Under the pieces are notes generated by a model. The model was not told the DNA's origin. It was given only the letters and a program-made list of their open reading frames with translations, and did not search any database. 64,000 nt of DNA from Protoeuglena noctilucae (taxonomy: Eukaryota), in contig OY253673.1 of assembly GCA_958009085.1 (NCBI GenBank), positions 372,001 to 436,000 of the forward strand, written 5' to 3'. Made by a program: the position numbers and the translations under genes. Positions 1,575-29,986 of the stretch are shown here, one piece after another (within the stretch, counting starts at the first letter, position 1; the number at the start of each line of letters is the position of its first letter).

Positions 1575-3363
1575 ATGGCTGGGAGGAAGAGGAAAGCGCC
1601 CGAGCCTTCCGAGGGCCGTCCGTTGAAGCGGAAGGCCGATGTGGTGGAGGAACCGGCTGCGGAGGCGGTGCATCACCCCTCGCACGGCAAGGTGGGCGAG
1701 GCGAACCGGGCAGCGCTTTCAGGCGATGTCGGCCGTCGCCTGCCCGATGTTATATCCAGACTGTTTGCGCTCGGCCGGTGCACCGCGGCGACTGCCGCGC
1801 GACTCGAGGCCGATGGCGCGCCACCCCTGCAGGTGGCCGGGAGGGTCTTCGTGTGGGGCGACGGGGACTGCGGCCAGCTGGGGCTGGGAGAGGACGTTAC
1901 GGACCGCCTGCGACCCTGGCCCGTCGATCTGGGCGTCGAGGTTCTGCAGGTAGCCTGCGGCGGGATGCACACGGTGGCGCTCGACGCCGAGGGGGCCGTG
2001 TGGACGTGGGGCGTGAACGACGAGGGCGCGCTGGGGCGCCCGACGGCGGGCGAGTCGGCAAAGAAGCTGTGGGAGGCCGCCAATGCCGGAGACCTGCCCG
2101 TGGAGGACGCGTACCGCCCCGCCCGAGTGCGGATGCCCGAGGGTGCGGCGCGCATCGTCCAGGTCTCCGCCGGCGACTCGCACACGTGCGCGCTGGCGGA
2201 GGACGGTACCTTGTGGGCCTGGGGAACCTTCCGGGACTCGTCGGGCGTCATGGGGTTCTCCCCGGACGTGCGGACCCAGGTGTCGCCGGCGGCGGTCTTT
2301 GGCCCCGAGGCTGGCATGCCGCACCGGGCCGCCAAGATTAGCAGCGGGTGAGCGCGAGCCCAGCAAAGCTTCGCAGAGCGTGGAGCGCCCTCGTCTCGTT
2401 GACCCGCTTTTCTTTGCACGTCGCAGGGACGACCACGTGGTGGCCATCACGGTGGCTGGGAGGGTCTTTTCTTGGGGCAACGGGCAACAGGGCCAGCTCG
2501 GGCGCGTCGGCGAGCGTATCCCCGAGAACCGGCGCCTCTCCGCGTTCCTCACCCCGGCCGAGATCCTGGTCCTCAAGCGGCCTTCCAAGGGCCTCCGCGT
2601 TGTCGATGTCCAGTGCAAGTCCTTCTCCACCTTCGTGTCCCTCTCTGGTGAGCTCTCCGTGACTGAATTGGTCATTAACCTATTAACACGTCGCACCCCG
2701 GGGCTGCTCGCTTGTTAGTTGCTCACGCCAGCGCCCATGGCTGCCCCCAGACGGCCGGGTGTACGCGTGCGGGCTGAACAACTACGGGCAGCTTGGCCTG
2801 AAGAAGGAGGGGTGCATTTTCGCCCCGGTGAAGGTGCCGGAGCTGCAGGGCTGCTCGCTGATCCGCCCTGGGCAGCACCACACCCTGGCGGTGCGGGACA
2901 ACATGCTGTACGCGCTTGGCCGGACCACCTACGGGCGGCTGGGCAGGGCCGACGTGGACGCCACGGCGGACGCTGCCGTCCACGAGCTGGGAGCGGTCGC
3001 GGGCCTCGAAGAGTGCGCGCCCGTGGCGGGCGCTGCGGGAGGCCTTGCGGTGTCGGGGTGCTTTGGTGGGCCAGAGGGGCGGCTGTGGCTCTGGGGTATG
3101 GGGGGACCCTTGCAAGGCAACGGGGATGAGGAGGACGACTGCCTCACGCCGCAGGTGAGGCGTTTGGGTGCTGTGTCGGGGCGGCAACGGCGGCCGACTA
3201 GGCTAGGGCAAACACGGGTGGCCCTGCGTGCTGCACGCAGAGGGTGAAGGAGTCGAAGAAGTTTAACGGGTGGAAGTGCCTCATGCTCGAGTTTGGCGGT
3301 CAGCACGCCTGCATGCTCGGCGTGAGGCGCGAGGGCTACGTAGTCCCGGAGGGCGCCGAGTGA
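1575..3363 (+). CDS. RCC1-repeat protein (regulator of chromosome condensation-like), spliced
   Basis: Repeated VFVWGDGDCGQLGLG, VACGGMHTVAL, VSAGDSHT, GNGQQGQLGR and FGGQHA motifs. Basic N-terminal NLS (GRKRK, LKRK). Last exon ends TGA 3361-3363. Confidence 0.88.
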
Positions 3364-3627
3364 AGGGCGCAGAGCGGTTGACCTGTGGCCTCCCCCTGTG
3401 TACTCTGAGCCGCGCACCGCCTTGAACGTCTTCGCACTGTCTACGGCGCGAATACCGCGCTCCCGGAGCCTGCGCCGGTGACGCACGGGGGCCCGGCAGG
3501 GCCAGGGAGCACCCATGGTGGTCGAGCCCGATCACGACAGCCTCGCAACGGCGCGTTTTGAGAAAGGGTGAGTTTGGGGGCGACCTTGAGCGAGCGAGTC
3601 GCGGTACGAAACGCTTTGCAGTTCAGC

Positions 3628-4557
3628 ATGCCGAGCCGCCCCCAGCGGGACCGAACGCGACGCGTCGACAACGCTCGCGCATTCTATGTTGAGTCCATGA
3701 ATTGCTGGCTGCGCTTTCCTTGCCTCGGAGGCGGCGCAGGAGTGGCAGTTGGGGACCCAGACATTGCGCATCAGCGTGACCCGCTTCCGTCACGCCGATC
3801 GCCCGAGGCCGCCGTTTCCGGCATATACGCACTCATCGGATCGCTCCGACACCGTCTGGTTTGATCGCGTCCCTCTTGCGGCCCCCGCGCGCAGGTTCGA
3901 GCATGACGACAGGGCCTCGGGGACGTGCTCCCCGAGCGAGCACGCAGCCCGCGTTTTCGCCTGCAACGTCTGCTTCGGAGACGCCGTGGAGCCAGTCGTG
4001 ACGCAGTGCGGGCACCTCTACTGCTGGAAGTGCCTGTACCGGTGGGCCCAGGCTCCTCGAACTGCCTCGTGCGCCCCATGGTGCCCGGTGTGCAACGCTC
4101 AGCTGGACCTCTCCCACGTCGTGCCCATCTACACACGCGGCGGTGCGCTGGAGGAGGATGCCGCGCTGGCCTCCTCGGGCGACTCGGATTTGATGGACGA
4201 CGAGGAGTTGGCGATACCGCCCCGGTGCGTCCTATGCAGAGCACCTCGCGAAGCTCCTTGCGTGCCTCCGGCGGGGCTGCAGGTGAGGTCAGTAGGCAGC
4301 TTGTCTACCTCACGCTTCCGCTGAGCTGCCGAGTTCCCTCCTGCCCTCGCAGTCCCAAGGCGCGGCGGCCACCGACCGTGCGCATGGACGCAATTGCAGG
4401 CGACCTCACGCTGGGTTTGGCCCAGGCCATGCACATGCGGGAGCTGGCCATGGGCCTCGACAGCTCAGGGAGCGCCGCGGATGCCAGGCTCGCCATGCAG
4501 CGAGGGCTGCTGCTCGTGGGATGCGTCCTCATTTCCATGGTTCTCTGCTTCCTCTGA
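3628..4557 (+). CDS. RMA/RNF5/RNF185-type C3HC4 RING E3 ligase with C-terminal membrane anchor; start uncertain
   Basis: FACNVCFGDAVEPVVTQCGHLYCWKCLYRW...CPVC...VVPIYTRG, followed by hydrophobic tail GLLLVGCVLISMVLCFL. Confidence 0.82.
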
Positions 4558-4848
4558 GCTACGTGGATGCATTTGTCCGCTCTAGCGCTCACTTTCACGA
4601 ACCTACAAGGGCACGATGTCTGACGATGGGACACATTGCCCGGTCCTATCCCGCCCTCTTTTACACCATCGCCCTCTTGCTTTAGCCCTAGGTCCGTTTC
4701 TTTCGTTGGGATCAACAGTTCAACGTGCCACGCAGCAAGGGCTGGCCCCCAGGTGCCTCGCACGCTTCCGTCATCACTGCTCTGCCAACACCCTCCCCGC
4801 CCACCGGCTATGACTGGCACTCGCGACCCGGCCCACCCAGCCGGCCCT

Positions 4849-6503
4849 TCACGCCTCTGCCTCCTTCTCGACGTTCTCCGTCGCAGAGATACGGTCCTTG
4901 AACAGAGCCGCCATCTCCTCCGCCCGGTCAAACACGACCTGGGGGTTGCGGATGAAGTCCCCGGGAGCCGGCTCCAGCTTCTTCGTCGACAGCGCGAACC
5001 TGCGGCGCGAGGGCGGCCGTGCTCTCATGTTGGATTTGCGCTTTAGTGCCACCCGCACACAGCCCTGCCTCTCGGGCACCCTTGCGCCAGCTCCTGGCCA
5101 GCCACCGCGTCCGCAAGGCCGCCAAGTTCGCCGCATGACACACATCGCTGAGCCCCTCACCGGTTCTTCTCCTTGTCCAGGCCCAGGACCATGACCTTGA
5201 TCTTGTCGCCGGGCGCAATGACGTTGTTGATGTTGGTGATGCGCTCGGCCGTCATCTGGGAGATGTGGAGGAGCCCCGAGATGCCGCCCATGTCGACGAA
5301 GGCGCCGTAGGGCTTGACGGCCGTCACGGTGCCCTCCACCACGTCACCGGGCGACATGCTCTGCTGGGCCGCGGCCCCCTCCTCCGACACGCCCTCCACG
5401 CGGCGGTTGGAAAGCACGAGCTTCTGCGACGTCTCGTCGACGTCGATGACCTTCATCGGGATGACCTGGCCCGTCATGTCGTCCTTGCTGTACATGGGAG
5501 ACAGCTGCGACACGGGCACGAAGCCCCGCACGCCCATCACGTCCACCATCACGCCGCCGCGGTTGGAGGCGTACACGGTCCCCTCGACGGTGATGTCCTC
5601 GTCCAGACACTGGCGGAGGCGCTGCCACACCACTTCCAGCTCCAGCTTGCGGATCGAGAGCGTCACCTCCTGCGAGGAGTTCGAGCCCACCACGACGAAT
5701 TCGCGAGTCGTCCCGGGGCTGATGACGTCGGAAGGCTCCGAAATCGGCGCGATGGACAGCTGCGGGGGCGGCGGACAAGCGGCGTCGGCGCGCGGGCGTG
5801 GGGAAGCGCCAGCCAGGGGGCTGCAGACCAGGCCCGGGCGGCGCGGAGACGCGGCCACCACCGCGGGCGCGGCTGCCCCGATCGCGCTCGCTTGAAATCG
5901 CTTGCCTCAGCGGTGGGCACGAACGCGGGCGCCTTGCCGCCGATGTCGACCATGGCGCCCCGGTTGTCCACCTTGAGGACGTTCCCGCTGATGCGCTCCC
6001 CGGGCTTGTACTGCGGGGCCGACGAAACGCAGAGCATATAGTGTGCAGCCAGCAGCGCGCGCGCGCGCAGAGGCCTCGCGACGGGCCTGAGCGAGCGCCT
6101 GGATTCGAGCAAGGGTGCGTTCCTGAGCCCACGCGCGCGCGCTCACCAACAAGTTGAAGTCGCCGATCAGCTTCTCGAACTCCTGGTACATGTCCGCCTC
6201 CGCAGGAGTGGCGAGGGCGCGAACGGGACCGGCACACCGGCGCGCCTGCGCTCGCGGGATGGTTGGGTTGACATGGCGACCGCGCCGCGCTGCGCGCGGA
6301 CCCCCGGGGCTGCGACCCTGCCGTGCAATACATTCGTCGAGCAGAGTCCTCTCGCTCCCATCAAACGCGGAACGGCAGCTGGGCGGTGACGCGCGCGCGG
6401 GATAAACAGCCGCCGGGCCTGGGGAAGCCGTCACCTGGACGGGATTGACCCGCACGGCGGAGGAGGCGGCCTTGGGCGCCGACAGGCGCATCGCGAATGC
6501 CAT
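4849..6503 (-). CDS. rps1: Plastid 30S ribosomal protein S1, spliced
   Basis: Three S1 domains ([69 protein letters not shown]). C-terminal [28 protein letters not shown]. Transit peptide [10 protein letters not shown]. Confidence 0.93.
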
Positions 6504-6943
6504 CTCCCAACAGCCTCTGCGATGGACGCGCAGCGGCGGTGTGGTCGCGACGGAATCCGGTCCCACGCCGCCTGTGAGTGATGCCTGGCCGTGCTGCGAG
6601 CTGCCGGCGCGACTGAGCTAACGGGAGGCTAGACGTGGGCAAAAGGACCACACAGACGCGATAGGGGGGCCATTGATCGGGTCCGGCTGCCTGTCCGACC
6701 CTGACTGGCGTGGGGAGAATGACCGGGTTTGCCTTGCAAGATCTGCGAGCGCGCTTTCAAGAACCACTTTGCGAATCGGGAAGAAACTGCGGACGCCGCT
6801 CACGCCCGAGACTGCTTGGAGCCACTCGGCGAGATTGCCGGCGCGCGGATTCCCGGTTGGTGGCCCATCTTTTCACTTGCAAGTCGATTGATTGGCTGAC
6901 CCGTCCGCTGGCGACCCTCGCCCCTATCGACAGTGCGGGAGAA

Positions 6944-9900
6944 ATGGCCGGGCTGGGATGCACCACCGCGCGTGTGGCGGCGTGCAGGCATCGCGTGCCG
7001 GTCGGGGAGAGTTCGCGTTCCATCTGCGTGGGGTTCAGGAGGGCGCCCGCCCCCACCCCAGCGCGTGGTGCGCGGGGAGGGGCGGCGCAGGATGGGTCGT
7101 TGCATCCATCTCGCGCGGGCTCGCGCCGCGCTGTCCGGGCGTCTGCGCTGTTCGACAACCTGCAGCAGATGATCTCCGGCGACCCAGCTGAGAAGACGAG
7201 GAAGAAGTACTTTCCGCGCGTGGACAGGATCAACGGGCTGGAACTCACCATAAAGGTGCGCCCCTCGCGCCCCAGGGCGACGTTTCTGCCCGCTCGACTG
7301 CCCGCCCCATTTTGGATGTTGTCCGTCGCCCTGCTAGCCTTGCGGATTCCTGTCTACCACGAGCCAGCGCCCGCTCGAGCCCGGCACTGGGTGGCCAGTC
7401 GCTCGTGGCCTTCTCGCGCGCAGGAGCTCTCGGACGACGAGCTTCGCGCCAAGGCTTCCGAGCTTCGGGAGAGGGTTCAGGGCGGCGCGTCCCTGGACAG
7501 CGTGCTCGAGGAGGCGTTCGCGCTCGGTGAGCCGAGCAGCCGCGCGCCACCAAGCAGCTGCCCAACCCTAGCCCATCCCTCCCCGCCCACACACACACCT
7601 CCGCCCGCGCCCCCCCCGCAGTGCGCGAGGCGAGCTCCCGCGTGCTGGGCCTGCGCCCCTTCGACGTGCAGCTGATGGGCGGCATGATTCTTCACGAGGG
7701 TCAGATCGCGGAGATGCGCACGGGCGAGGGCAAGACCCTGGTGGCCGTCCTCCCCGCCTTCCTCAACGCCCTGGCCGGCAAGGGCGTCCACGTGGTCACC
7801 GTGAACGACTACCTGGCCCGCCGTGACTCGGAGTGGGTCGGCCAGGTGCACCGCTTCCTGGGTCTCACGGTGGGGCTGGTCCAGCAGGGCATGGACGAGG
7901 CGGAGCGCAAGCGGGCGTACGCGGCGGACGTCACGTACGTCACCAACTCGGAGCTGGGCTTCGACTACCTGCGTGACAACCTCTGCAACCGCCCCGAGGA
8001 GTTGGTGCAGCGCCCCTTCGCGTTTTGCATCATCGACGAGGTGGACAGCATCCTGATCGACGAGGCGCGCACGCCGCTCATCATCTCGGGATCCGCGGAC
8101 GCCCCGAGCGACAAGTACCAGAAGGCCACCAAGCTGGCGGGGGCGCTGGTGCTCGGGGTGCACTACACGGTGGACGAGAAGCAGCGAGCGGTGCTGATCA
8201 CTGATGAGGGCTACGCTGCGGCGGAGGAGGTCCTGGGCGTCTCTGACCTCTACGAGCCCCGTGCGCAATGGGCCACGTACGTCCTCAACGCCTTGAAGGC
8301 CAAGGAGCTGTACAAGCGCGACGTGCAGTACATCGCGAAGGGCGGGGAGATCATCATCGTGGACGAGTTCACTGGTGAGTGGCTGGGTTGACAATTGATA
8401 ACAGTTAGCGGGTGGTAGGCGGGTGGGGAGGGGCCCGGGTGTCAAGGCTTGTGTGGCGGGCAGTTTGCGTGGCCTCTGCGTTTCAGCTGACGTGTCAACG
8501 GGTCATTGAGTGGGCGATGAGAGTGTTTTGGTCAGACTGTTGCATGTGACACATGCAGCCATCGTCTAACGCGGCACCTCTCCCGCAGGCCGCACCATGC
8601 CGGGCCGCCGGTGGAGCGACGGTCTCCACCAGGCCATCGAGGCCAAGGAGGGCTTAGAGGTGAAGGAGGAGTCCATCACGCTCGCGTCCATCTCGTACCA
8701 GGCTTTGTTCCGCATGTTCCCACGGCTGGCGGGCATGACCGGCACGGCCGCCACAGGTGGGCGGCGGTGGGGGTGGTGGCGGTGGGGTGGGGTGGGGTGG
8801 TCCAGGCCACAAGTTGGGCTTGCGGCTGTGTCTGACCAGTGCGATCTCGGAACTTTGTTCCCGCATGGCCCTGCTGTGTCTGCCTGCTGGTCTCTCTGTG
8901 CACACGTCAGTGCCCATTCCAGCGCTGTGGCTACTGACGCCACTTGCGTTAGACTCAGCTCTCGCGGACTCGCTGCGATCGCAGAGACGAAGGAGTTCAA
9001 GGACATCTACGGCCTGGACGTGACGGTGGTGCCCCCCAACCGCATCATCCAGCGCGACGACTTCGACGACGTTGTGTTCGCCCGTCTGTCTGGCAAGTGG
9101 AACGCGGTGGTGACGGAGGTCAAGCGGATGAACAAGAAGGGCAGGCCCGTGCTCGTGGGGACCACGTCAGTCGAGGGGTCCGAGATGCTCGCACGTGAGT
9201 CGGGGTGGGGGTGGGATGGTGCATTGGGTGTGGGGAGCGCAGGTGAAGAGTATGGGCTGGGTTGGGTGTGCTGAGCGTGGTTGGGGTGTGGTCATGACGT
9301 GCAATGGTTGGGTGTGGAACTAGAGCTTTCAGCTACAGTATTGGTTGGGTCCTCATGAGCTGTTATCGCACGTGCCCTTGTCGGTGACTGGGTCACATGC
9401 GTGTGTGCCACGCACGGGAACCCTGACCCGCGACGTCGCCTGCAGAGATGCTGCGGGAGGAGGACATCACGTGCCAGGTGCTGAACGCCAAGCCCGAGAA
9501 CGTGGAGCGGGAGGCGGAGATCGTCGCGCAGGCCGGTCGCAAGGGCATGGTGACCATCGCCACCAACATGGCCGGTCGAGGCACGGACATCCTGCTGGGC
9601 GGCAACTCCGAGTTCATGGCCCGTTTGAAGGTCCGCGAGGCTCTGATGCCCCGGGTGGTGTCGCTGGTGGAGTCTTCGGACACCGTCCGACGCGTGCGGT
9701 CGTGGAAGGTCGCGGAGGGGCTGTTCCCCAGGGAGCTTACGGCTGAGGCGAGTGGGTGGTGGTGGGGTGGGGGTGTTGGTGGTGATAGTAGTGGTGGTGG
9801 TGGTCAACACATGGCTCAGGGTCTCACCTCACGTGGCTGCTTCCTTAGGTGCACTCGTGCACACGTGGTCATCCCAATCATCTTCCCTCTACCCCGCAGA

Positions 9901-18895: not shown

Positions 18896-19648
18896 TCATC
18901 GACCATCGAAGCTGGCCCCCCTGCGCCTCCTCGACCCCTCCTGCGACTCGCTCCGATCTCTCTTCTTCTCCTTCCGCCGCTTCTTCTCCTTCCTCTCCTT
19001 CTTCTCTTTCTTCTGCCCCTTTCGCTCCTCCCTCTCGCGTTTGCGGCCTCTCTCCCTCCCGTCCCCGCCACGCGCCACGCCGCCCTCCCCGCCCTCCCGC
19101 TCCGGCGCCCGCTCACGTGACCCACGGTCCGCCGCGCCGTGCAGCCCGCTCATGCCGCTCGGCAGCTCGAGCCCCTCGTAATCCATGTACGCACTGCCGG
19201 GCACGGAAGGGCACGCAGCAGGCTTGACGCAGCGGCACCGACCCCCACCGCCACCGCCCACGCCTACCGCACACGCCCACCCCCCGAGGCCTAGCGCACA
19301 CACTCACCCGCCCAGGCCGCGCCCCCGCGGCACGCTCGGCGCCGCCGTCACGTGTCCCGGCCGTGGGAAGGACTCCGAACGGGTCCCAGCCGCAGCCGTA
19401 GCCTCCCCCGCACCGCCCGCGCGGCCGCTACGGCTCGCTCCGGCACCACCCTCCGCCGCGCGCTGGCTCCGCGCCCGCTCCTCTCCCCCGCCGCCCTCCC
19501 GCTCGCCCCCCGGCTGAACCCCCGACTCGGCAAAGTGCTCCTCCCAAAGGGTCTTCTCGTCAGCCCTCCTCACGTGCGCCTCGGCGTCTCTGACCACGCG
19601 GAGGAGGAAGGACCCGCTGGGCCGTGGGGCGCCGGCCGGGCGCGACAT
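18896..19648 (-). CDS. Small nuclear-type protein, NKAPD1-like N-terminus with Lys/Arg-rich tail; 2 exons
   Basis: [36 protein letters not shown] resembles the NKAPD1 N-terminal motif (recalled, not searched). Second exon has KKEKKERKEKKRRKEKKR. Confidence 0.6.
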
Positions 19649-19663
19649 CGGCGGCAGGGCGCG

Positions 19664-20513
19664 TCACAGCTTGACGGCCTTGGCCTGGCGGATGCGCTGC
19701 GGGCGGAGAGGGATGTCCGATACGCCAGTCATTCTCGCCGCCAGACTGCAGCGCGGCGAGGGCTGGTGCCAGCAACGCATCGAGTCCCCTACCTCCAGGT
19801 GCCTCGCGACCAGGGGCGTGAGCCCGATGGTGATGGGGGTCCGCACGGGGAAGAGGAACTGCGGGAGACGGTCTCGCAGATGAGAGCGAGTTCCAGGTGC
19901 GCACTTGGGGAAATCAAAGGGACCCACGTCGTCGTAGCGCAAAGCCGGCACCTTGTTGCAGATGAAGGCCAGCGCCAGGGTGCCACCCGTGCCAGATACG
20001 AGCTTCTCTAGCCAGTTGGACTCCTCGTTGCGCATGGGATCGTCCGAGCCGTCCTGCGGGTGGGGCAGGAAAGGTCCGTGACCACGTCGTGCCGGCCACC
20101 CAACGTGGACCCGCGTGTGCAAGGCCACGCGCGCCACCGCCTCGCCTTCTTCGATCCCTGAGGCATCAGCCCATAGTTCTGGAGCATGCCCTTGACATCG
20201 ACGTTGGACTGGAGCGCCGCGTAGCAGACGCCTGGGGAGAGAGCGGGCGCGGGGGGTTCGGGGAGGGCCAGAAGGGATCGGCAGCGGACACTCGTTGTGA
20301 AGGATGATCGAAACTCACTGATTCCGGTGAAGTAAACGGTGAAGTGCACGCCCACGGCCACGGTTCCATACTTTCGGAAGAGCTGCGGGAACGGACTCGA
20401 GCGCGTGTCTCGGCTGCGGTATCGAGCGCGATGTGAATGGTGTATATTCCAAGCAGCGCGGGGGCGGCTGGCGCGGGGGAATCGGCGCGCCTCGCCTCCC
20501 GGACAGCAGCCAT
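19664..20513 (-). CDS. FAM210/DUF1279-family membrane protein, spliced; start uncertain
   Basis: LFRKYGTVAVGVHFTVYF...CYAAL...VDV...GTLALAFICNK...LFPVRTPITIGLTPLVARHL matches the DUF1279 signature. Confidence 0.85.
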
Positions 20514-20901
20514 CTTCCGGGGGAGGCGCGCCTCCCGTCCGAACGCCGGTGCGCGCGCGACTCGAAGGCGCAGGGGCCGCTGCCCCCGATGCTGACAATC
20601 TCGAGTACCCCCAACGCGCACTATCTCCACAATCGGCGTCCCCGAGAGGGAGGGAGGGCTGATTCAACGGAAGGGGCACTCCGTTTCCGCCCCTGAGCAA
20701 TCCACGCACAGCAAGCAAGGCAGGTCGGAGCTCTCAGCGACCATCACTGGCCCATGCTGGCAAAGTGAATCGAGATACGCGCCTGACATGACGCAGCCGA
20801 GCGGAACTGACGCGGGCTTGACACGCAGGTGGTCTGACGCGACAAGGGAGGTGCTATCTCTATCAGATGGTGATGAGCGATTCAACAGTCGAGGGGTGCT
20901 A

Positions 20902-21144
20902 TGACTCTCAGAGCCACGCCTTGCGGCAGAAGTGCCGTCCCCCGGGGCAGCTGACACCCCGGGGTTTCCATCGTTGCAGTGCATATGGCACGTGGCCCGC
21001 CCCCGCTAGGTCGCCCCACCCTAAGGCAAAGGGGTCGCCCACCCCGGGTTCTTGCACCCCTAGCCCCGTCGCTGCGCCCGAAGGCAGAATCGCCGTCCCA
21101 GAGTGGGACGATGCAGCCGCGGGGGCCCTCCGTGGAGACCCCCG
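20902..21144 (-). ncRNA. Candidate structured RNA (multi-hairpin), probably the retroelement 3' terminus
   Basis: At least six stems on the minus strand, with cUUCGg, cGCAAg and cCACGg tetraloops and G-U pairs that only form on the minus strand. Confidence 0.5.
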
Positions 21145-21593
21145 GGCGTCTATTACAAAAGGTGAGGCCGAGGCTAATGACGATCTGTCTGTGTAGCTTA
21201 TGTGCGGCCAATCATGACATCCCCCGCTCCCTACCCTCCTCCCATCCTCCTCAGGCGGCCCAGTTGGCTCGCCCACCTGGCCACGCTGGCCCGGACGCGA
21301 GGGCGGTGGGGGCGGTCCGAACGCAGACGGCGTTCCTTGGGGGGCGCAGCGTTGCCCCTGGGCGCCCCGCTCGCCCACGCTGCGCCCCTGAGGGCCGGCT
21401 GCCTCTCATGTGCACCGCCCCAGACCGCCCCGCTCCGGGTGCGTGCGCCGGCACGACCCCCTCGGCCGTGTGCCCAGAGACCCACGACGTGACCCCGCTC
21501 CTCGCTCCCGCACGTCGACCTTGGCCCTTGGCCCGTCCTCTCCCGCGCCCGTCGGCCTTGGCCCGTCCCTCAACTCCTCGCCCCCACACGCCC

Positions 21594-21810
21594 AGATGAC
21601 CTTGGCCTATCACGCTGACGACCTTGGCCCATCACGCTGACGACCTTGGCCGAATGCGCTGACGACCTTCAACCGACGCTGTGGCGACCCTGGCCCTTTA
21701 ACGCTGACGACCTTGGCCCACCTCCCGCTCCGCGCACCCGCGCGCCTGATAACCGAGGCCTGCCCCCCGCTCACGCGCACCCGCGCGCCCTGATAACCGT
21801 GGCCTGCCTC
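21594..21810. repeat. Array of ~22-bp repeats (acgctgacgaccttggccc, ~6 copies) followed by two ~38-bp repeats
   Basis: Direct reading. The second unit cgcgcacccgcgcgcc(c)tgataaccgNggcctgcc occurs twice. Confidence 0.85.
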
Positions 21811-22973
21811 GCGCCCCCGTCGCCCCCCCAAACACCCGACACCCCTGTGTCGCCCAGCCCATGCCCACCCACACCACTCGTTGCCCCTTGTGTTACTCTC
21901 GCCGCCGCCGCTCGCTCTTGCCGCGCTGCCATCGCGCCCGCCCCCAAAAGCCCGCTGCCCTGCTGTGTGTCGTGCGAGGGGTCGCCCCCGCCAGCGCCAC
22001 CATGCCGGGCGCCAGCACCCCTCGCCATCCGTTGCTCTCCTGCAGGGCCTCCTCAGCAGACTCCCAAAGACAGGCCCTCCGGCCCCGCTTGCGCTCCCAC
22101 TCTCCCCGTCTCGTCGCAGCCACGCCGCTCTCTGATCCTGTGGCGCCTGGTCCGTTCTGCGCCACTGCCGGGTGTTCCCACGACATCCCCGGCGTTCCAC
22201 CCCACGGGCGCCATGTCTCTCGCCACTGTCTGAGCCCATCAACCCGTTGCTGCCAGCTCTGCCCCGACGTTTGTCCCCCGTCGCACCCTTTGCCAGCCCC
22301 CCCCAGCGGGGCTGGTCTCTCACGTTGGCTGGAGCACAGGCGACGCGCTGGCGACCCCCACGCGGACCCACCCGACCAGCGCCAGAGCCCCTGAAGGACC
22401 ACGGGCGGGGAGGCCACGCGGCACGCGCAGTACCGTGGGTGTGCGGGGCGCGCCGCAACGGCGACGGAGCAGACGCCCCACGGGTGAGCGCTGGCGGCTG
22501 TGGGACACCAAGGGCCTGCGAGGCATGGCTGCAAAGGGCTAGGGGTGAGGCAAGGGTGCGTGTGCGCGTCCGTCCAGGTCTGCGGTCGGGGAGAGGTGAC
22601 GGTGTGCGTGACGGAGGATGAGTGTCGGTGTGGGTCCTGACCTGCGGCTGGCAAAGAGGGTGGTCGTGGGAGGATGCGAGGAGGTCTGTGCGTGATTGGG
22701 GGAGGTCAGGAGGTGCAGATGCTGTGCTGGATCGGTGTGTGGTGCTTGGTGCGTGGGGAGTGATGCGCTGAGGGGTGCGAGTGCTCACCTGGGCATTAGC
22801 TGTGAGGAGAGGGTGCTGAGCCTTACCTGTGCAGCTAGGGGGGGAGTGCGTGGGGCAGGAGGGCTTGCGAAAAGGGCGAGTCTGGTTGGGCGTGTGAAGT
22901 GAGGTGTATGGGGGGGCGTGGTCCGTGAGAAGGGTGTGGCGTGGGGCTGGCAGGAGGAGGGGTGGGAGATGAT

Positions 22974-23081
22974 GCGTGCTGAGCAGGAAGGTGGTTTATG
23001 TGGGGGTCCATGTGGAAGAGGAGAGGGGCGTGCTGAGCAGGAAGGTGGTTTATGTGGGGGTCCATGTGGAAGAGGAGAGGG
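22974..23081. repeat. Perfect 54-bp tandem duplication
   Basis: gcgtgctgagcaggaaggtggtttatgtgggggtccatgtggaagaggagaggg at 22974 and 23028. Confidence 0.92.
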
Positions 23082-23905
23082 GGTTGAGAGGTGAACGTGT
23101 GTATGTCAGTGGTGATGCGCGGTGAGTGGGCAAGAGTGGTGCTGAGCGGCGAGATCGGGGGATGAGTGACGAGGGTGCGTGCAGAGAGTTAGAGGGCGTG
23201 TGTGGTCTGGTTGGAAGAGGCATCTACCTGTTAGCTGCGGGCATGGACGGGGAGGCGTGGCATGCGGGTGAGTGCTGCTGGGGCAGGGTGCGTGTGCAGT
23301 GAGATGTGGGGGGTGGAAAGTGTGCGTCATAGGAAGGCAGTGGGCTGGCTTAGGGACCTGGTGGGAGCAATGCGGTCGGGTGGATGTGGGAGTAATGCGG
23401 ATTGGGGTGGGGTGGCATGGCCGGCTGCGGGGAAAGTGTAGAGCAGGCGTGTGAGTAAAGCTGTCGAGTGTGCGTCCGAGAACCTGCGAGGCATGCGAGA
23501 GATGGAGCGTGGGTGCGCAGAAGCCCTTGGTGTCCCGAGCGCCGGCACCCTCCCCGTGAGGCGCCCGCCCTTGCCGCCACAGCGCGCCCCACGCCCCTGC
23601 AGCTGCGCGCGCATCGCGTGGACCCCCCCGCCCGCGGCCCCTCTCAGGCTCCGGCTCCGGCCAGGCAGCCCAGGGGGTCGCCGGTGGCGCCGCCGTGCGG
23701 TACTCCAGCCCATATCATCCTGGGTACAGGGGAGCTTGTTTTAGCCGGCAGACGGGCTCTTCCGTAGATGCTCAGTGTGGCCGTGGACGCCCCAGTTGGC
23801 CGGGGCGCCGATGCCGGAACGAGCAGCCCGAAGGCCACCCGTCCGGCGCCGGCGCCCCGGCCCGAATGTCGTGGGGTGATGGCGTGCTGCGAATGAAGAG
23901 GCCCC

Positions 23906-26900
23906 TCAGGGGAGTAGCGGCTCGACGGCTGCCCATGTGGGCGCAGTGTAGGTGAAGGTGGACCTCGCCGGGTCTCTTGGGTGTAAGAGGGCGTCGTCAG
24001 GGTGCGTGCAGCGCGCGAGGGCCCACCCGCCCCGGTACGCCGCCAGAGCGACGAGCTCCTCGGCCATGATGCGCGTCATCTGCGCGAACAGCTGTGCCGG
24101 GGACGCGTCCGCCCCCGCGTCCTCCGTCAGCTGCTGCCGCCTGCGCCAGATGACCTGCACGGTCGCCCCCGCCACGACCGCCCACGTGAGCGGCCCCAAC
24201 CGCGCGCCCTCCGGCACGCGCAGCAGGAAGAGGGCCGACGGGCGGAGGGGCGCCCCCTGCGCCCCCCCCGCCCACGCCACGATGCCCCTTGCCACGCGCC
24301 ACACCTCCCGCGCGCGCGAGCACTCCCAGAACGCGTGGGCCGCGCTGTCCTTTCCCATGCACGCCTCCCCCTCCGTCGTCAGCAGCGGGCACTCGTCCCG
24401 CTCCGCCCAGTACATCCTGTCCTGCGTGGCCCACCCGTCCGCCAGCGTCAGCCACAGCCGCTCGTGCAGGGCGTCCGACAGCGGCAGTCCGTTGAGCGCC
24501 ACCAGCGTGCGCCTCAATCCCTCTCCCGTTATGCCGTGTCCCTCCCCCAGCGCCGCCGCCCAGCCCTCCGCCTTGCGCTCCAGCCGCTGCCGGATCGCCG
24601 CCCTGTCACACGTCGTCCTCGCCGCCTCCCGCACCGTGTAGGAGGCCAGGTCCAGCGCCGCCTTGGAGGCGACGCCGGGGTCCAGTGCCCAGCCCGGCGC
24701 GGTGGCCGTCATGGGCCGGTAGAAGTCGTTGGCCTCCCCGCCGCCCGGGGAGGCAAGTCGCAGGCGCTCCATGAAACCCTCCGTGAGCGCCAGCCCGTCC
24801 CACGGGTCCCATTGCCCCTCCACGTCTGGCCGGGCATACTCGTTGCCCGGCCCAAGGAGGCCCAGGTCCCGCATAAAAGCCCCAACCACCCAGCCGAGGC
24901 CCCTCCGATCCACCCCCGGCAGCCGATCATAGCCCAGCGCGAACGCCCAGGAGACCCACGTGTCCCATCGCCGCGCCGGGTCCCGCATGCAGAGATAATG
25001 CCCCACAGTTCCGAAACCCCGTAACGCCATCGCCCTCCCCACCGGGTGCAGGAGGAGGGGCCGGCCGCCCCCCGCCGGCCGCCCAGCACCCCCCTCGTCG
25101 ATCCCATCATCCGAATTGTCGTCGCCCGACGCGCCGTCGTGCACCCACGCCCCACCAGCCCTCCCATGGGCGCCCGTCGCGAAGCTGTGGAGCGATGAGG
25201 CCGAATCGTCTTGGTCCTGTCCCATGTCGTTGTGGAGGGGGCCAGCTGCCCCCTCCATCGCCGGCGCCCCCAGGGCTGCCACCCCCGCGCCCGGGCCGCC
25301 CCCGCCGGCGGCACAGAGGACCCCCGGGGTGAGAAGCGACGCGCAGAGTAGATCCCCCTTTGTAGTCCCAGTGACGGGGGTGAAGAAGTCCGTAGAAGAG
25401 GCGAAACGCGAGCCGTCCGTGCCCGCCAGGCCCCCGCCGCCCACGCGCGCCCCCCGCCAGCCATGCCCGTCCATGGCCACGTTGGACAGGCGGTCCGCCA
25501 GGGCGTTCTGCTCCCGTGGCACGTGCTCCCAAGTGATGTCGAGGCCCGCCGCGAGCCTCTGCGCCTCGGTCCACAGCGGCACCAGCGCCGGGTGCCGCAG
25601 CGCCGAGCAGTCCCGCGGATCCATGGCGCGGATGACGAGGAGGGAATCCCCCCGGACGCGGAGCTTGGTGGCGCCGAGCTCGACTGCCGCGCGTAGCCCT
25701 CCCAAAAGCGCGGCGAACTCGGCCTGGTTGTTGGAGGCCCCGCGCACGGCGGGGCCCGCGAGCTCCAGCGTCTCCACCCCCTCGCCTTCCCCGGCCGCCA
25801 GCACCGCCCCCGCGCCAGCCGTGGACGTGTCGGAACCGTTGCCCCGCGAGACCCCGTCGAAGTTGAGCGTCAGCCGGCCCTCCGCCGCCAGGTTGGTCCA
25901 GCGCTGCTGGGCGACCTCGTCCGTCGTGGGTGCCAGAGGTGGCGGCGCGTGCACGGGCCCGAGGGTCGCGCGCAGGGACCCGAGGCCCTTGATGGCGTCG
26001 CAGATGCTCTCGAGCGCCGGTAGCTTGCCCCGCAGGCGGCGGGACTCGATCAACTGCGCCACGTGGCAACCGTCCGTCTCGGGCAGTGAGAAGGGCAGCA
26101 GGCCCAGCCGGCCTGCCCCGAGCCCCTCCAGGCACGCCGTGAGGATGCCAGCGAGACCGCCCAACTGGCCGTGAGCGCCCACGCGCTTCGTGATGAGGGC
26201 GCGCGCCAGGTGCCGGAGCCGCCGCGCCGCCGTGTGCGCGTCCAGCGGGAGGGCGCCCAGCCCCCCCTCCTCCGGCGGGGCGGTCAGCATGATGCGGCCC
26301 ACACGGAACCACACCTGCCCCGCCGATCGTGCGTTGAGGACATAGCGCTCCTGGACCCTCCGCAGGTCAGCGACGCACGAGTGGTCGGCGGCGGGGGACA
26401 TCTCCAGGTGGTACCCCGCGAGCGAGGTGATGTAGGCGTTGGCGACGCGCGCCCGACCCCGGATCGGCAGCCCCAGCGATGACGCCGCGTCCGCGCGGCG
26501 CAGGGCCTCCCCCAGCCGCCCGGGCCACACCAGCGCCGCCTGCTCTCTCGTCTGCGCCCCCAGCAGCCGCACGCCCCCCGGCTCCACCCCCCACGGGCAG
26601 CCCTGCGCGGCGGCCTTGGCCTCCTGCCGCTTGTTGATGCGTCCCAGTCGGTAGAGCTTCGTCTTGGTCTGGCTCGCCTTCAGCCCGGACACACGGTGGA
26701 AGTCCCGCAGCACCTCGGCCAGCTCCCGCCACGGGTCGAGTTGGTTCCTGTCGCGCCCCACGAGCCGTTGGAGCAGCACGTTGAAGTCGTCGGCGAAGGC
26801 CAGCAGCGTCTCGGCCCTGCCGCCCGTCGTCCGGATGCCGAGCACGCGGTCGCACCGCGGGCCGCCCGGCAGCTGCACCGGCTCCTGGCCCCACGCCCGC

Positions 26901-29476
26901 AGCCTCTCTGCGAGGGGCTCCACCGCCAGCACGAAGATGAGCGGGCTCAGGGGGCATCCCTGCTTGACGCCCCGGTTGAGCGGGAACGGCTCCCCCGCCG
27001 CCCCGTTGAGGACCAGGCTCGCCCGGCTGTCGCTCTGCAGCGCCACCGCCGCCTTGACAAAACGCGGCGGGAGCCCTCCCCACGCCATCGCGTCCGCAGC
27101 CCACCCCCGGAAGGCCGTGTCGTACGCCTGTTTGAAGTCCACCAGCACCGCCCACGCCGACTGCCGCCGGATGCGCATGAGCTCGTCGAGCAGATGCAGC
27201 GAGAAGATGGCCGTCCCAATGTCACGCCCGGGGACGAAACCCAACTGGTCCTCGTGCACGAGCTGCGGCAGCACCCGCAGCAGCCGCGCCGTCAGCACCT
27301 TGGCCGAAGACTTGTAGAGGACGGACAGTAGGGAGATGGGGCGGTACCGCCGCCAGTCCGTCCGCGAGCCGCCCTTGTGGATGAGCGTGATGGCGGCGTC
27401 CGCGAGGCGGCCGTCGTGCCCCTCGCCGCGGAGGAGCTTGTTGACGAAGTAGGCGACCACCCGCTCGACACCCGCCTCGGTCCCGGTGCCCTGGCACGCC
27501 TTCAGCAGCGCCGGGGAGATGCCGTCCGCGCCACCGCAGCTGTCGCCCCGTAGACCCTGTATCGCCTCCGCCGCCTCCGCCCGTGTCACGTCTGCCTCGA
27601 GAGCGGCCCTCGCCTCCTCCGACAGCGGCGACCGCGGGTTGCGCAGGAAGTTAGCGCGTGCCCTCTCATGTTGGCCGTCCGCGGAGGCAGGGGGCGCGGC
27701 AGGGGCGTAGAGCTGGGCCATGTTGGTCTGCAGGTCCCGCGCGAGGTCGTCCGTGACGCCCTCGACCCGCCGCCGCCACTTGAAATGGGCCGTGATCCGC
27801 CGACTCGGCACGGCCCCGAAGACCCGCAGAAAGTGCTTCGCCCGCTCGCTCTGCCACTGGACCTCCTGCTGCTCCAGCACCGTCAGCTGGCGCTGCAGGT
27901 CCAGCATCCGGTCCCAGTCCTCCGTCGCGTTCGTCCGCTGCGCCCTCCTCTCTGCCCGTCCCAGTTGCTTCTCCAGACGCCTCCGCTCCCCGTCCCGCCG
28001 CCGCCGCACCACCAGGTTGATCGCCTCCGCGCGGTGCCGGATGACCTTGGCCACTCGCACCGACGTGCACCCCGGCCCGTCCGCCGGTAAGTCCCTCCAC
28101 ACACCCCGCCGGAATCGCTCGGCCTCATGGCTCCCCGGCGCCCAGAGCGGCCGGACCTGCCGCAGCGGGTTGCGCCCCGCGGCCCTGTCTGCCCGCCGCC
28201 GTAGCGTCAGGACGAGCGCCTTGTGGTCCAGCCCGGGCACGAAGCGCGCCGCCAGCGTCGCCGGGTACCGGACCAGCAGGGCCGGGCGCGCCAGGCAGCG
28301 GTCAATGCGCGCCGCCGGCGTCGCTGCCCCCTCCGCTCGCGCCCCGAACCACGTGTAGGTGTCCCGGCGCAGCCCCAGCTGCACGTGCACGTCCGCCAGC
28401 CCCTGCGGCCCCGTCACGTTCTCCGCCCAGTGGATGACCTTGGCCAGGTCGTCGTGGTAGCGCCGGGACGCCCGCTCGAGCGGGTGACCCGACGTGCAGT
28501 TGAAGTCCCCGACGACGATCGTCTCCCTGTGCGCCTGGCGAGGCGGCATCAGATGCCGCAGCCGCGCAGTGAAGTCCCTGTGCGCTGCCGCCCCCCCGGA
28601 CGCCGGCGCGTAGACCCCCACCACCGTGAAGCGCCGGTCGGCCCATGCGAGGTCGGCTGCGCACGCCCGCCCCGCCAGCCCTTCCACGTCCGCCCCGCGC
28701 CGCTTCGGCGCGCCCGCCACCGACTCCCGATGTACCAGCACCCCCACGCCCCCCGGGCCGCCGTTCTCGTCCAGCGACCAGTGGCAGAAGTATTGGGGGA
28801 AGAATCCCGACGCCACCGCCTCCTGCCCCGCCCGCATCTTGACCTCCTGTAGAACCACCACGTCCGCCCGCAGCCTCCGCACCAGCCGCCGCACCGTCGC
28901 CCGCTTGCCCGCCATGGCCCCGCTCGACAGCCCCCGCACGTTGACGCTGACGACCCGCAGGTCGTCGGGCGCGAGGTCCCGCGCCGCGCTCCGCCTTCCC
29001 CGTCGCCGTGGCCCGCGCGCCGGCACCGCGGCCGGCGCCATCCGCGGCGGCGGCGGCGGCGGGGGCAGATTCCCCAACGGCGGCAGCGGGATGGGTGGGA
29101 GCGCGCCGATACGCGCTCCCGGCGCCTCCCCAACCTCCGACCCTTGCGCTCCCGAGCTTCGAACGCCTCCAGACCGACTCTCCCCGCTCCCCCGGCCTCG
29201 CAGACCGCTCCCGCCCCCCCTTCTCCTCGCGCCGCCATGCTGCCCCAGCGCGCCCCCGCGCCGCGCACCCGCGCCCGCTCCGCCTCCTCCGCCCCCCGTA
29301 GACCCTCCTGCGATATCTTCTGAACCTTCTGCATGCAAAAGACCCGACGCCGGCCCCGCCCCGCCACCGCGCGGGCCCCGAACGCTCGAGCTAACAACAC
29401 CATCTGATCGGGCCGCCCCCGTCGCCGCATCCCCCTCCCGCCGGCCTCCCGGCCCATCCATGCTACAGATCGTCAT
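23906..29476 (-). CDS. Retrotransposon polyprotein: AP endonuclease + reverse transcriptase + RNase HI + CCHC zinc knuckle (intronless, ~1850 aa)
   Basis: APE: SVNVRGL, LQEVK, VGDFN, RIDR, DHK. RT: YRPISLL, DFKQAYD, GVKQGCPLSP, AFADD. RNase H: NFDGVSRGN, NNQAEF, GDS, HVPREQNALAD. Knuckle: CPLL...C...HAFWEC. First ATG at 29476; alternative at 29041. Confidence 0.96.
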   Translation of the reverse strand: MTICSMDGPGGRREGDAATGAARSDGVVSSSVRGPRGGGAGPASGLLHAEGSEDIAGGSTGGGGGGAGAGARRGGALGQHGGARRRGGGSGLRGRGSGESRSGGVRSSGAQGSEVGEAPGARIGALPPIPLPPLGNLPPPPPPPRMAPAAVPARGPRRRGRRSAARDLAPDDLRVVSVNVRGLSSGAMAGKRATVRRLVRRLRADVVVLQEVKMRAGQEAVASGFFPQYFCHWSLDENGGPGGVGVLVHRESVAGAPKRRGADVEGLAGRACAADLAWADRRFTVVGVYAPASGGAAAHRDFTARLRHLMPPRQAHRETIVVGDFNCTSGHPLERASRRYHDDLAKVIHWAENVTGPQGLADVHVQLGLRRDTYTWFGARAEGAATPAARIDRCLARPALLVRYPATLAARFVPGLDHKALVLTLRRRADRAAGRNPLRQVRPLWAPGSHEAERFRRGVWRDLPADGPGCTSVRVAKVIRHRAEAINLVVRRRRDGERRRLEKQLGRAERRAQRTNATEDWDRMLDLQRQLTVLEQQEVQWQSERAKHFLRVFGAVPSRRITAHFKWRRRVEGVTDDLARDLQTNMAQLYAPAAPPASADGQHERARANFLRNPRSPLSEEARAALEADVTRAEAAEAIQGLRGDSCGGADGISPALLKACQGTGTEAGVERVVAYFVNKLLRGEGHDGRLADAAITLIHKGGSRTDWRRYRPISLLSVLYKSSAKVLTARLLRVLPQLVHEDQLGFVPGRDIGTAIFSLHLLDELMRIRRQSAWAVLVDFKQAYDTAFRGWAADAMAWGGLPPRFVKAAVALQSDSRASLVLNGAAGEPFPLNRGVKQGCPLSPLIFVLAVEPLAERLRAWGQEPVQLPGGPRCDRVLGIRTTGGRAETLLAFADDFNVLLQRLVGRDRNQLDPWRELAEVLRDFHRVSGLKASQTKTKLYRLGRINKRQEAKAAAQGCPWGVEPGGVRLLGAQTREQAALVWPGRLGEALRRADAASSLGLPIRGRARVANAYITSLAGYHLEMSPAADHSCVADLRRVQERYVLNARSAGQVWFRVGRIMLTAPPEEGGLGALPLDAHTAARRLRHLARALITKRVGAHGQLGGLAGILTACLEGLGAGRLGLLPFSLPETDGCHVAQLIESRRLRGKLPALESICDAIKGLGSLRATLGPVHAPPPLAPTTDEVAQQRWTNLAAEGRLTLNFDGVSRGNGSDTSTAGAGAVLAAGEGEGVETLELAGPAVRGASNNQAEFAALLGGLRAAVELGATKLRVRGDSLLVIRAMDPRDCSALRHPALVPLWTEAQRLAAGLDITWEHVPREQNALADRLSNVAMDGHGWRGARVGGGGLAGTDGSRFASSTDFFTPVTGTTKGDLLCASLLTPGVLCAAGGGGPGAGVAALGAPAMEGAAGPLHNDMGQDQDDSASSLHSFATGAHGRAGGAWVHDGASGDDNSDDGIDEGGAGRPAGGGRPLLLHPVGRAMALRGFGTVGHYLCMRDPARRWDTWVSWAFALGYDRLPGVDRRGLGWVVGAFMRDLGLLGPGNEYARPDVEGQWDPWDGLALTEGFMERLRLASPGGGEANDFYRPMTATAPGWALDPGVASKAALDLASYTVREAARTTCDRAAIRQRLERKAEGWAAALGEGHGITGEGLRRTLVALNGLPLSDALHERLWLTLADGWATQDRMYWAERDECPLLTTEGEACMGKDSAAHAFWECSRAREVWRVARGIVAWAGGAQGAPLRPSALFLLRVPEGARLGPLTWAVVAGATVQVIWRRRQQLTEDAGADASPAQLFAQMTRIMAEELVALAAYRGGWALARCTHPDDALLHPRDPARSTFTYTAPTWAAVEPLLP

Positions 29477-29884
29477 TTTACCGCACGCTGCCAAGCGCGC
29501 GGCGCCTCGCAAGCCCCCCTCGGCTCCGGGGCGCGGCTCGTCCCGAGCCAACGAGACCGAGCGGCTGTGCCTTCACCTGGCGCCTGCCAGGGGTTTTGCG
29601 AACTCGCCTCCTGCCTAGAGAGTCGCGATGCACATGACCGTTCCGCCGCACCCCTCGCCACCCTCCCGCTCGCGCTACGCCGACGGCCTACCTGATGATG
29701 ATGAGCGATGATGATCCCGCGCGCCTAATCCGATGATGAAAGCGAAAGCCCCCCCTGGGCGGGCCAGCGCGTCGACTATTGAGGCGAAACGCGAGGCGTC
29801 GAGAGGCGTGATGCGAGCCGTCGACGGATCGGAAAAAGGTCACTAAACACTTCTCCACAACGATCACGCCATTTAGACCTCCGC

Positions 29885-29894: not shown

Positions 29895-29902
29895 GGCACT
29901 TG

Positions 29903-29986
29903 TAGCAGTGGTGGGGTTCGAACCCACGCGCACTTTCGTGCAGATGCTCTTAAGGCACCCTCCTTGAACCACTCGGACACACTGCC
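29903..29986 (-). tRNA. trnL-UAA: tRNA-Leu(UAA), intronless, long variable arm
   Basis: GGCAGTG-TGTCCGAGTGGTTCAAGGAG-GGTGC CT TAA GA GCATC-TGCACGAAAGTGCG-CGTGGGTTCGAACCCCAC-CACTGCTA. A and B boxes, acceptor stem and an AT-rich element ~30 nt upstream are all present. Confidence 0.95.

Follow-up and report, generated by a model that had tools for sequence, protein, structure and literature searches.

A hairpin-rich 243-nt stretch is probably part of the 3′ UTR of a young LINE

Introduction

Does a string of neat hairpins in a GC-rich genome mark an RNA with a fold of its own, or does it reflect the composition of the sequence that carries it? The question is raised by 243 nt on the minus strand of a 64-kb window (the whole stretch of Protoeuglena noctilucae DNA analysed here, in which all positions are counted), where stems capped by UUCG and GCAA loops, and by a third loop of GNRA type, follow one another close to the end of a retroelement. 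The original prediction saw in this stretch (the candidate) a highly structured RNA whose tetraloops and G-U pairs favour the retroelement sense strand, and read it as a recognition or priming structure for reverse transcriptase (RT), a ribozyme or an independent non-coding RNA (ncRNA).

Our analysis favours placing the 243 nt, with good though incomplete confidence, within the 3′ UTR of a young multi-copy LINE, 36–278 nt upstream of a 3′ end that carries a CAT-type tail. The LINE family appears to be young and has probably been active recently. The earlier observation is an accurate description, but it is not significant, and the hairpins of the candidate are those that a G-rich strand of 65–70% GC forms anyway. 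The features on which this placement rests are collected in Table 1.

Table 1 Features of the candidate and of the element around it
Feature	Position	Strand	Evidence
Candidate: GC-rich 3′ UTR stretch with listed hairpins	20902..21144	-	Sequence, folding, hairpin counts
LINE (non-LTR retrotransposon), full-length copy, ~8.8 kb, 5′ limit approximate	20866..29692	-	ORF domains, depth step, terminal motif
Single long ORF, 1881 aa	23906..29551	-	Translation, Pfam domains, codon-position GC
3′ UTR, ~3 kb, mixed composition, with tandem repeats and one inverted repeat	20866..23905	-	No codon periodicity; repeat search
22-nt and 44-nt tandem repeat arrays within the 3′ UTR	21598..21808		Repeat search
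3′ terminal tail: imperfect CAT-type simple repeat after ATCGCT	20866..20881	-	Sequence; cleaner (CAT)n in other copies
Second copy of the terminal motif, immediately upstream of the element 5′ end	29692..29709	-	11/11 exact, 16/18 extended

Results

A LINE on the same strand

The long ORF encodes, in order, a G/R-rich N-terminus, an APE endonuclease (Exo_endo_phos, PF03372; 3.5e-16, residues 202–432), an RT (RVT_1, PF00078; 1.3e-23, residues 733–968), an RNase H-like domain (RVT_3, PF13456; 1.4e-12, residues 1238–1358) and a Cys/His-bearing C-terminus. GC content at one codon position stays at about 0.9 throughout the ORF. No such periodicity is seen across the 3′ UTR and candidate region, 20701–21600 included, and the candidate region is therefore taken as non-coding. 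It lies about 2.8 kb downstream of the ORF stop. Since the endonuclease-RT-RNase H ORF stands upstream on the same strand, and the copies share a 3′ end, the candidate is indeed placed on the retroelement sense strand, as had been proposed.

Relatives of the RT-RNase H region fall into two very unequal groups. One cluster (P0002, 49 member sequences) is 99% identical, and the other 39 of the 40 matches listed are 25–38% identical over 22–63% of the query. Among metagenome contigs, 275 pattern matches to this region yielded no confirmed relative, nor did three among viral contigs.

The element ends at its 3′ side in a simple repeat and has no poly(A). Its terminal 11-mer, ATCGCTCATCA, stands at 20881–20871 and again at 29709–29699, just upstream of the ORF; sharing of a word of at least 11 nt with the junction zone occurred by chance in only 21 of 2971 control pieces. 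The extended motif pair (20881–20864 and 29709–29692) brackets a unit of about 8.8 kb, running roughly from 29692 to 20866. The motif at the 5′ flank need not be a target-site duplication, because the tails of other copies carry it themselves; it may also be what is left of a previous copy truncated almost completely, or a microsatellite of CAT type that served as the target.

The 3′ UTR also holds a perfect 54-nt tandem duplication (22974–23082) and an inverted repeat of about 140 nt (arms 22381–22520 and 23516–23655; 72.6% over 146 nt, E 4e-10). The arms of the latter are about 1 kb apart and could represent a nested foldback element, a TIR-type insertion or an internal rearrangement.

Boundary of the repeat and its copies in public contigs

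The stretch 20700–21400 (701 nt) is found in 16 listed runs from seven studies, comprising marine metagenomes, metatranscriptomes and three organisms. The best run shares, 0.70–0.75, are about the fraction of this stretch that lies to the right of 20866; four metatranscriptome runs contain it at shares of 0.48–0.66. We compared the contigs of four runs (X8, X10, X1 and X13) with positions 19000–21590 at 80% likeness. X8 and X10 are RNA libraries, and as summed contig depth reflects neither copy number nor expression level, only the depth step and the junctions were used. In the three runs that cover both sides (X8, X10 and X1), depth steps up at bin 20827–20913: from 3.7–3.8 on the unique side to 49.5–174 in the repeat in X8, from 0–12.6 to 22.6–59.8 in X10 and from 0–174 to 2020–8152 in X1. 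The corresponding values in X13 are 2.4–2.6 and 5.2–18.6. The X1 ratio is far above those of the other three runs, and its depth may mean either that this organism has many copies or that an RNA is abundant.

At the level of single junctions, loose contig ends at 20866, 20871 and 20872 continue leftwards into mutually unrelated sequence (agreement 0.58–0.68), and on the opposite side other records break off at 20902, 20908, 20941 and 21355. A fixed 3′ end combined with variable 5′ break points is the signature of 5′-truncated non-LTR retrotransposon copies; PMC2881922 describes such copies as often truncated at the 5′ end and possibly ending in short sequence repeats. The boundary at 20866–20872 thus has a single-copy spliced host gene on one side and a multi-copy repeat on the other, and the presence of this minus-strand gene to the left indicates that the repeat truly ends at 20866. 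The claim that the candidate adjoins a 3′ junction is borne out by this boundary. Multi-copy status extends over 20866–21590 in contigs and up to about 21659 in copies read as proteins, with the ORF end at 23906.

The host gene spans 19515–20739, where an X10 contig joins 19515–19696, 19952–20052, 20145–20230 and 20496–20739. The skipped parts, 87–113 nt each, mostly begin and end as CT..AC on the plus strand, which identifies the gene as spliced on the minus strand; one is bounded by CT..GC, as a GC-AG intron would be, and the ends of another are ambiguous. About 130 nt separate the first exon from the LINE 3′ end.

Within the 64-kb window no second copy of the repeat is found, and neither of two words taken from the candidate, of 21 and 25 nt, has a match in collections of viral, metagenome and genome contigs. 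All covering runs differ from the window at 21068, about 21184, 21262, 21264, 21278, 21413, 21460 and 21490, so that the window copy has changes of its own that the common form of the repeat lacks. One 1837-nt record of X1 (depth 1967) passes into the repeat at 20890 out of sequence that does not resemble the window. X1 also contains a form in which a 437-nt part (20900–21336), the whole candidate included, is replaced by 13 letters, with a summed depth of 449. An internal deletion has left this form with no more than the final ~35 nt at the element 3′ end.

Folding and hairpins compared with chance

The helices listed in the original prediction are all where it put them on the minus strand. 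Encoded as 54 base pairs, they are canonical or G-U in every case (54/54), four being G-U. The energy of this helix model is −84.1 kcal/mol, against a minimum free energy (MFE) of −123.2 kcal/mol for the 243-nt minus strand.

This energy does not stand out from dinucleotide shuffles of the whole 243 nt (n = 200 per strand). The minus strand (−123.2 vs −119.57 ± 5.14 kcal/mol; z = −0.71) is equalled by 49 of 200 shuffles and the plus strand (−106.8 vs −101.28 ± 4.74; z = −1.16) by 21 of 200; z-scores as ordinary as these are also compatible with a real fold, as the measure discriminates poorly where GC content is high. GC content in the window is about 62–74%, and about 68% overall. The lower raw energy of the minus strand is due to its excess of G (95 G, 76 C), which allows G-U pairs, rather than to a strand-specific fold.

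Scanning 20401–21800 in 120-nt sliding windows (33 windows, 60 shuffles each) gives local minus-strand z-scores of −1.86 to +1.74 over the candidate, similar to those of its flanks, and the lowest value of the scan, −2.76, falls in the tandem-repeat array at 21601–21720. Neither the global nor the local scores support more structure than GC content does, and the term 'highly structured' goes further than they allow.

Hairpin counts are somewhat more favourable to the candidate. Against 2000 shuffles, it has 7 distinct short-loop hairpins with stems of at least 6 bp (4.79 ± 2.23 in shuffles, P = 0.21), 4 with stems of at least 7 bp (1.96 ± 1.46, P = 0.14) and 3 with stems of at least 8 bp (0.82 ± 0.91, P = 0.05), the last being a marginal enrichment. 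Among 2552 sliding tiles of the window, 31 reach a hairpin count of at least 5, the minus-strand tile starting at 20901 among them, and the three UNCG/GNRA hairpins of the candidate are matched in number by 66 tiles (2.6%). The candidate falls in the upper few per cent of the 64-kb window, which is where a search by eye is bound to land.

Helices across other copies

Further copies of the repeat become visible through spurious open frames. A search of a protein collection with the minus frame 20911–21405 gave 287 candidates, none of which scored, and the plus frame 20955–21596 retrieved the window's own product together with seven other proteins (P0043–P0049). tblastn against the window identifies these seven as translations of other copies in two frames, with the switch between frames at about 21184, where the window copy is longer by 4 bases. 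P0043 and P0044 extend into the 22-nt array, aligning to about 21659. In P0045, P0046 and P0047, runs of M stand before SDST, ahead of the shared sequence; such runs correspond to (ATG)n on the plus strand and thus to a (CAT)n tail on the minus strand of those copies. P0049 matches up to about 21165 and is unrelated beyond, which marks it as a 5′-truncated copy.

Combining 13 variable positions deduced from amino acids with six from contigs gives 19 distinct variable positions in the candidate, the former being drawn from amino-acid differences in two spurious frames of seven partial copies, where synonymous changes (for example at 21104) are invisible. Six of the 19 fall within paired sites (108 of 243 nt), where about 8.4 are expected, and there is no clear depletion. 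Two of these six stem changes keep a wobble pair (21121 and 20902) and four break a pair (20904, 20905, 21099 and 21100), although the break at 21100 could be rescued by a synonymous change that protein data do not reveal. Larger lesions also touch the stems. In P0043 the 5′ arm of the first hairpin is 2 nt shorter within its G-run. P0045, which is rearranged around 21035–21055, has also lost about 21 nt around 20930–20950, and with them both the gtgcc helix and the ccccggggt helix lose their 3′ arms. A stem broken in one copy is poor evidence about the active lineage, because most retroelement copies decay neutrally after insertion, and the seven visible here are probably dead for the most part.

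No compensated pair is found in the listed helices among the seven partial copies read through amino acids and the contigs. The one double-sided compensatory change combines U>C at 21056 with A>G at 21049 (minus strand). It was read by eye in a 30-letter loose end at 21039 common to X8, X1 and X13, and the hairpin concerned, of 4 bp, belongs to the MFE fold but not to the listed helices. Two of the checks that had been proposed for the candidate, a folding score and covariation, therefore turn out against it: with an energy no better than that of shuffles on either strand and no covariation in the listed helices among the few copies visible, four of six stem changes breaking pairs, the claim of a special structured RNA fails on present evidence.

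Weighing a recognition role for the LINE reverse transcriptase

According to PMC2881922, non-LTR elements usually carry a 3′ sequence or structure recognised by their own RT. The candidate, or part of it, might accordingly be a selected RNA structure of the LINE 3′ UTR, which the RT would bind to pick its own RNA and to position priming; we regard this as unlikely, though plausible by analogy. The site is apt, being on the sense strand and within 280 nt of the 3′ end, and that much of the priming claim stands. The mild enrichment of stems of at least 8 bp, the stable tetraloops and the 21056/21049 pair, which comes from a diverged subfamily, point the same way, as does the 5′ half of the candidate (21071–21183), identical in amino acids in all four copies of that frame (P0044–P0047). 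Against such a role stand the shuffle-like fold of both strands and the uncompensated, mostly pair-breaking changes in the listed helices. P0045 has lost the 3′ arm of the strongest hairpin, and the X1 form joining 20899 to 21337 (depth 449) dispenses with the stretch altogether. Nor are variable sites in contigs sparser in the candidate (7 in 243 nt) than in the adjoining UTR (14 in 446 nt). An RT-recognition element, if the LINE has one, may lie in the candidate or near it.

Known RNA families and independent transcripts

A scan of the whole 64-kb window with Rfam 15, whose families include ribozymes, snRNAs, SRP, RNase P/MRP, telomerase RNA and LINE elements, gives a single match at gathering score, a tRNA at 29903–29986. 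A permissive scan of 20500–21600 (E ≤ 10) adds four matches at chance level (E 0.27–8.5), which score 14–17 bits against cut-offs of 45–100; none is to a ribozyme, snRNA, SRP, RNase P/MRP or telomerase model. The absence of any Rfam family at the candidate, at gathering score or E ≤ 10, tells against the ribozyme and known-ncRNA readings. A telomerase RNA was also considered and set aside: by eye, the plus strand shows only a 7-nt match to a TTAGGG-type template, at chance level.

An independent ncRNA gene or self-cleaving ribozyme, standing beside the retroelement or captured by it, would account for the several clean hairpins capped by UUCG and GCAA, for the presence of the stretch in four metatranscriptome runs and for the very high depth in X1, a run whose type is not on record. 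Besides the lack of an Rfam match, contigs of two RNA libraries (X10 record 11, 20866–21527; X8 record 21, 20866–21260) span both proposed ends and bridge them by hundreds of bases, although contigs cannot show RNA ends. By inspection, no T-run terminator follows 20902, and in the copies seen the stretch is always accompanied by flanking repeat sequence. Taken with these observations, a separate RNA gene or ribozyme is very improbable. RNA-library contigs also run through a TGTAA on the minus strand at about 21151–21155; it resembles the green-algal poly(A) signal, but in view of these contigs we attach no weight to it.

Scarcely credible, too, is a real antisense protein encoded by the plus strand of the repeat: the frame is open in four copies (P0044–P0047), starting at ATG codons in the tail, and from the repeat end inward in most copies, and P0044 reaches 263 aa with 22 member sequences, but long open frames are expected at 70% GC, the product is rich in P, R and A and has no recorded Pfam domain, the 4 extra bases at about 21184 interrupt the frame in the window copy, P0043 has its 2-nt deletion and P0046, P0047 and P0048 switch frames. 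Because copies differ by such frameshifts, and codon-position GC periodicity is absent at 20701–21600 against about 0.9 in the LINE ORF, we take the plus frame at 20866–21660 as a spurious GC-rich frame.

Discussion

Reading the candidate as ordinary 3′ UTR of the LINE accords with how such elements spread. What is observed here is the domains of the ORF, the multi-copy status, and copies that end alike at the 3′ side but break at variable points at the 5′ side; the mechanism is inferred from the family. The element would be transcribed as one long sense RNA and its endonuclease would nick the target DNA; the RT would then start cDNA synthesis at the RNA 3′ end (target-primed reverse transcription), and incomplete copying would leave the 5′-truncated copies seen elsewhere.

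Among known systems, I-factor-type elements come close. PMC2881922 describes for them an ORF2 domain order like that found here (APE, RT/RNase H, C-terminal Cys/His). They are alike also in ending in a simple trinucleotide repeat instead of poly(A) and in having 5′-truncated copies. The tail of the I factor is of TAA type, whereas that of the present element is of CAT type. Its relatives outside the 99% cluster are distant (25–38% identity), and we assign it to no clade. The present element differs further in its single 1881-aa frame with a G/R-rich N-terminus, no separate ORF1 being seen, and in an unusually long 3′ UTR of about 3 kb with internal tandem repeats.

The closest precedents for a functional reading are the RT-recognised 3′ UTR structures of 'stringent' LINEs, such as those of R2 and SART1 and the stem-loops of eel UnaL2 and zebrafish L2-type elements. 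The candidate shares their position: on the sense strand, a few hundred nucleotides from the 3′ end, before the simple-repeat tail. Their structures, however, are backed by covariation, binding or retrotransposition assays, whereas the candidate folds like its shuffles, has listed helices without compensation and matches no Rfam model. Mammalian L1, which is not known to carry an RNase H domain, ends in poly(A), unlike the element here. Its 3′ UTR can be dispensed with in retrotransposition according to PMC2881922 and would be a possible analogue if the candidate proved dispensable.

A bolder form of the recognition idea would make the terminal ~280 nt of this hitherto uncharacterised RNase-H-bearing LINE lineage, with its CAT-type tail, a multi-hairpin module by which the RT would choose its own RNA and prime it. 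We hold this to be a long shot. Were it true, the 21056/21049 pair and the excess of stable tetraloops would be its first traces, and the very high depth in X1 could reflect a 3′ UTR that builds up as an abundant RNA in its own right.

Assigning the stretch to the end of the 3′ UTR in an intact LINE family, one carried by a marine eukaryote of high GC content, has little import beyond annotation, although it may help the cataloguing of mobile elements in marine algae. It also holds a caution: a genome of about 68% GC yields neat strings of UUCG and GNRA hairpins in a few per cent of 243-nt tiles, and since such strings arise by eye at that rate, their presence alone does not show that an RNA is structured.

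Elsewhere in the window, Pfam assigns no family at E ≤ 1e-5 to 13 of 14 long ORFs, and the remaining one shows a Kelch match below threshold. About 200 nt upstream of the LINE 5′ end lies a tRNA-Leu gene (anticodon taa by ARAGORN; 52.5 bits) at 29902–29986 on the minus strand, followed by a T-run. Between this gene and the LINE are pieces of CAT/TCA-type microsatellite together with a copy of the LINE tail motif.
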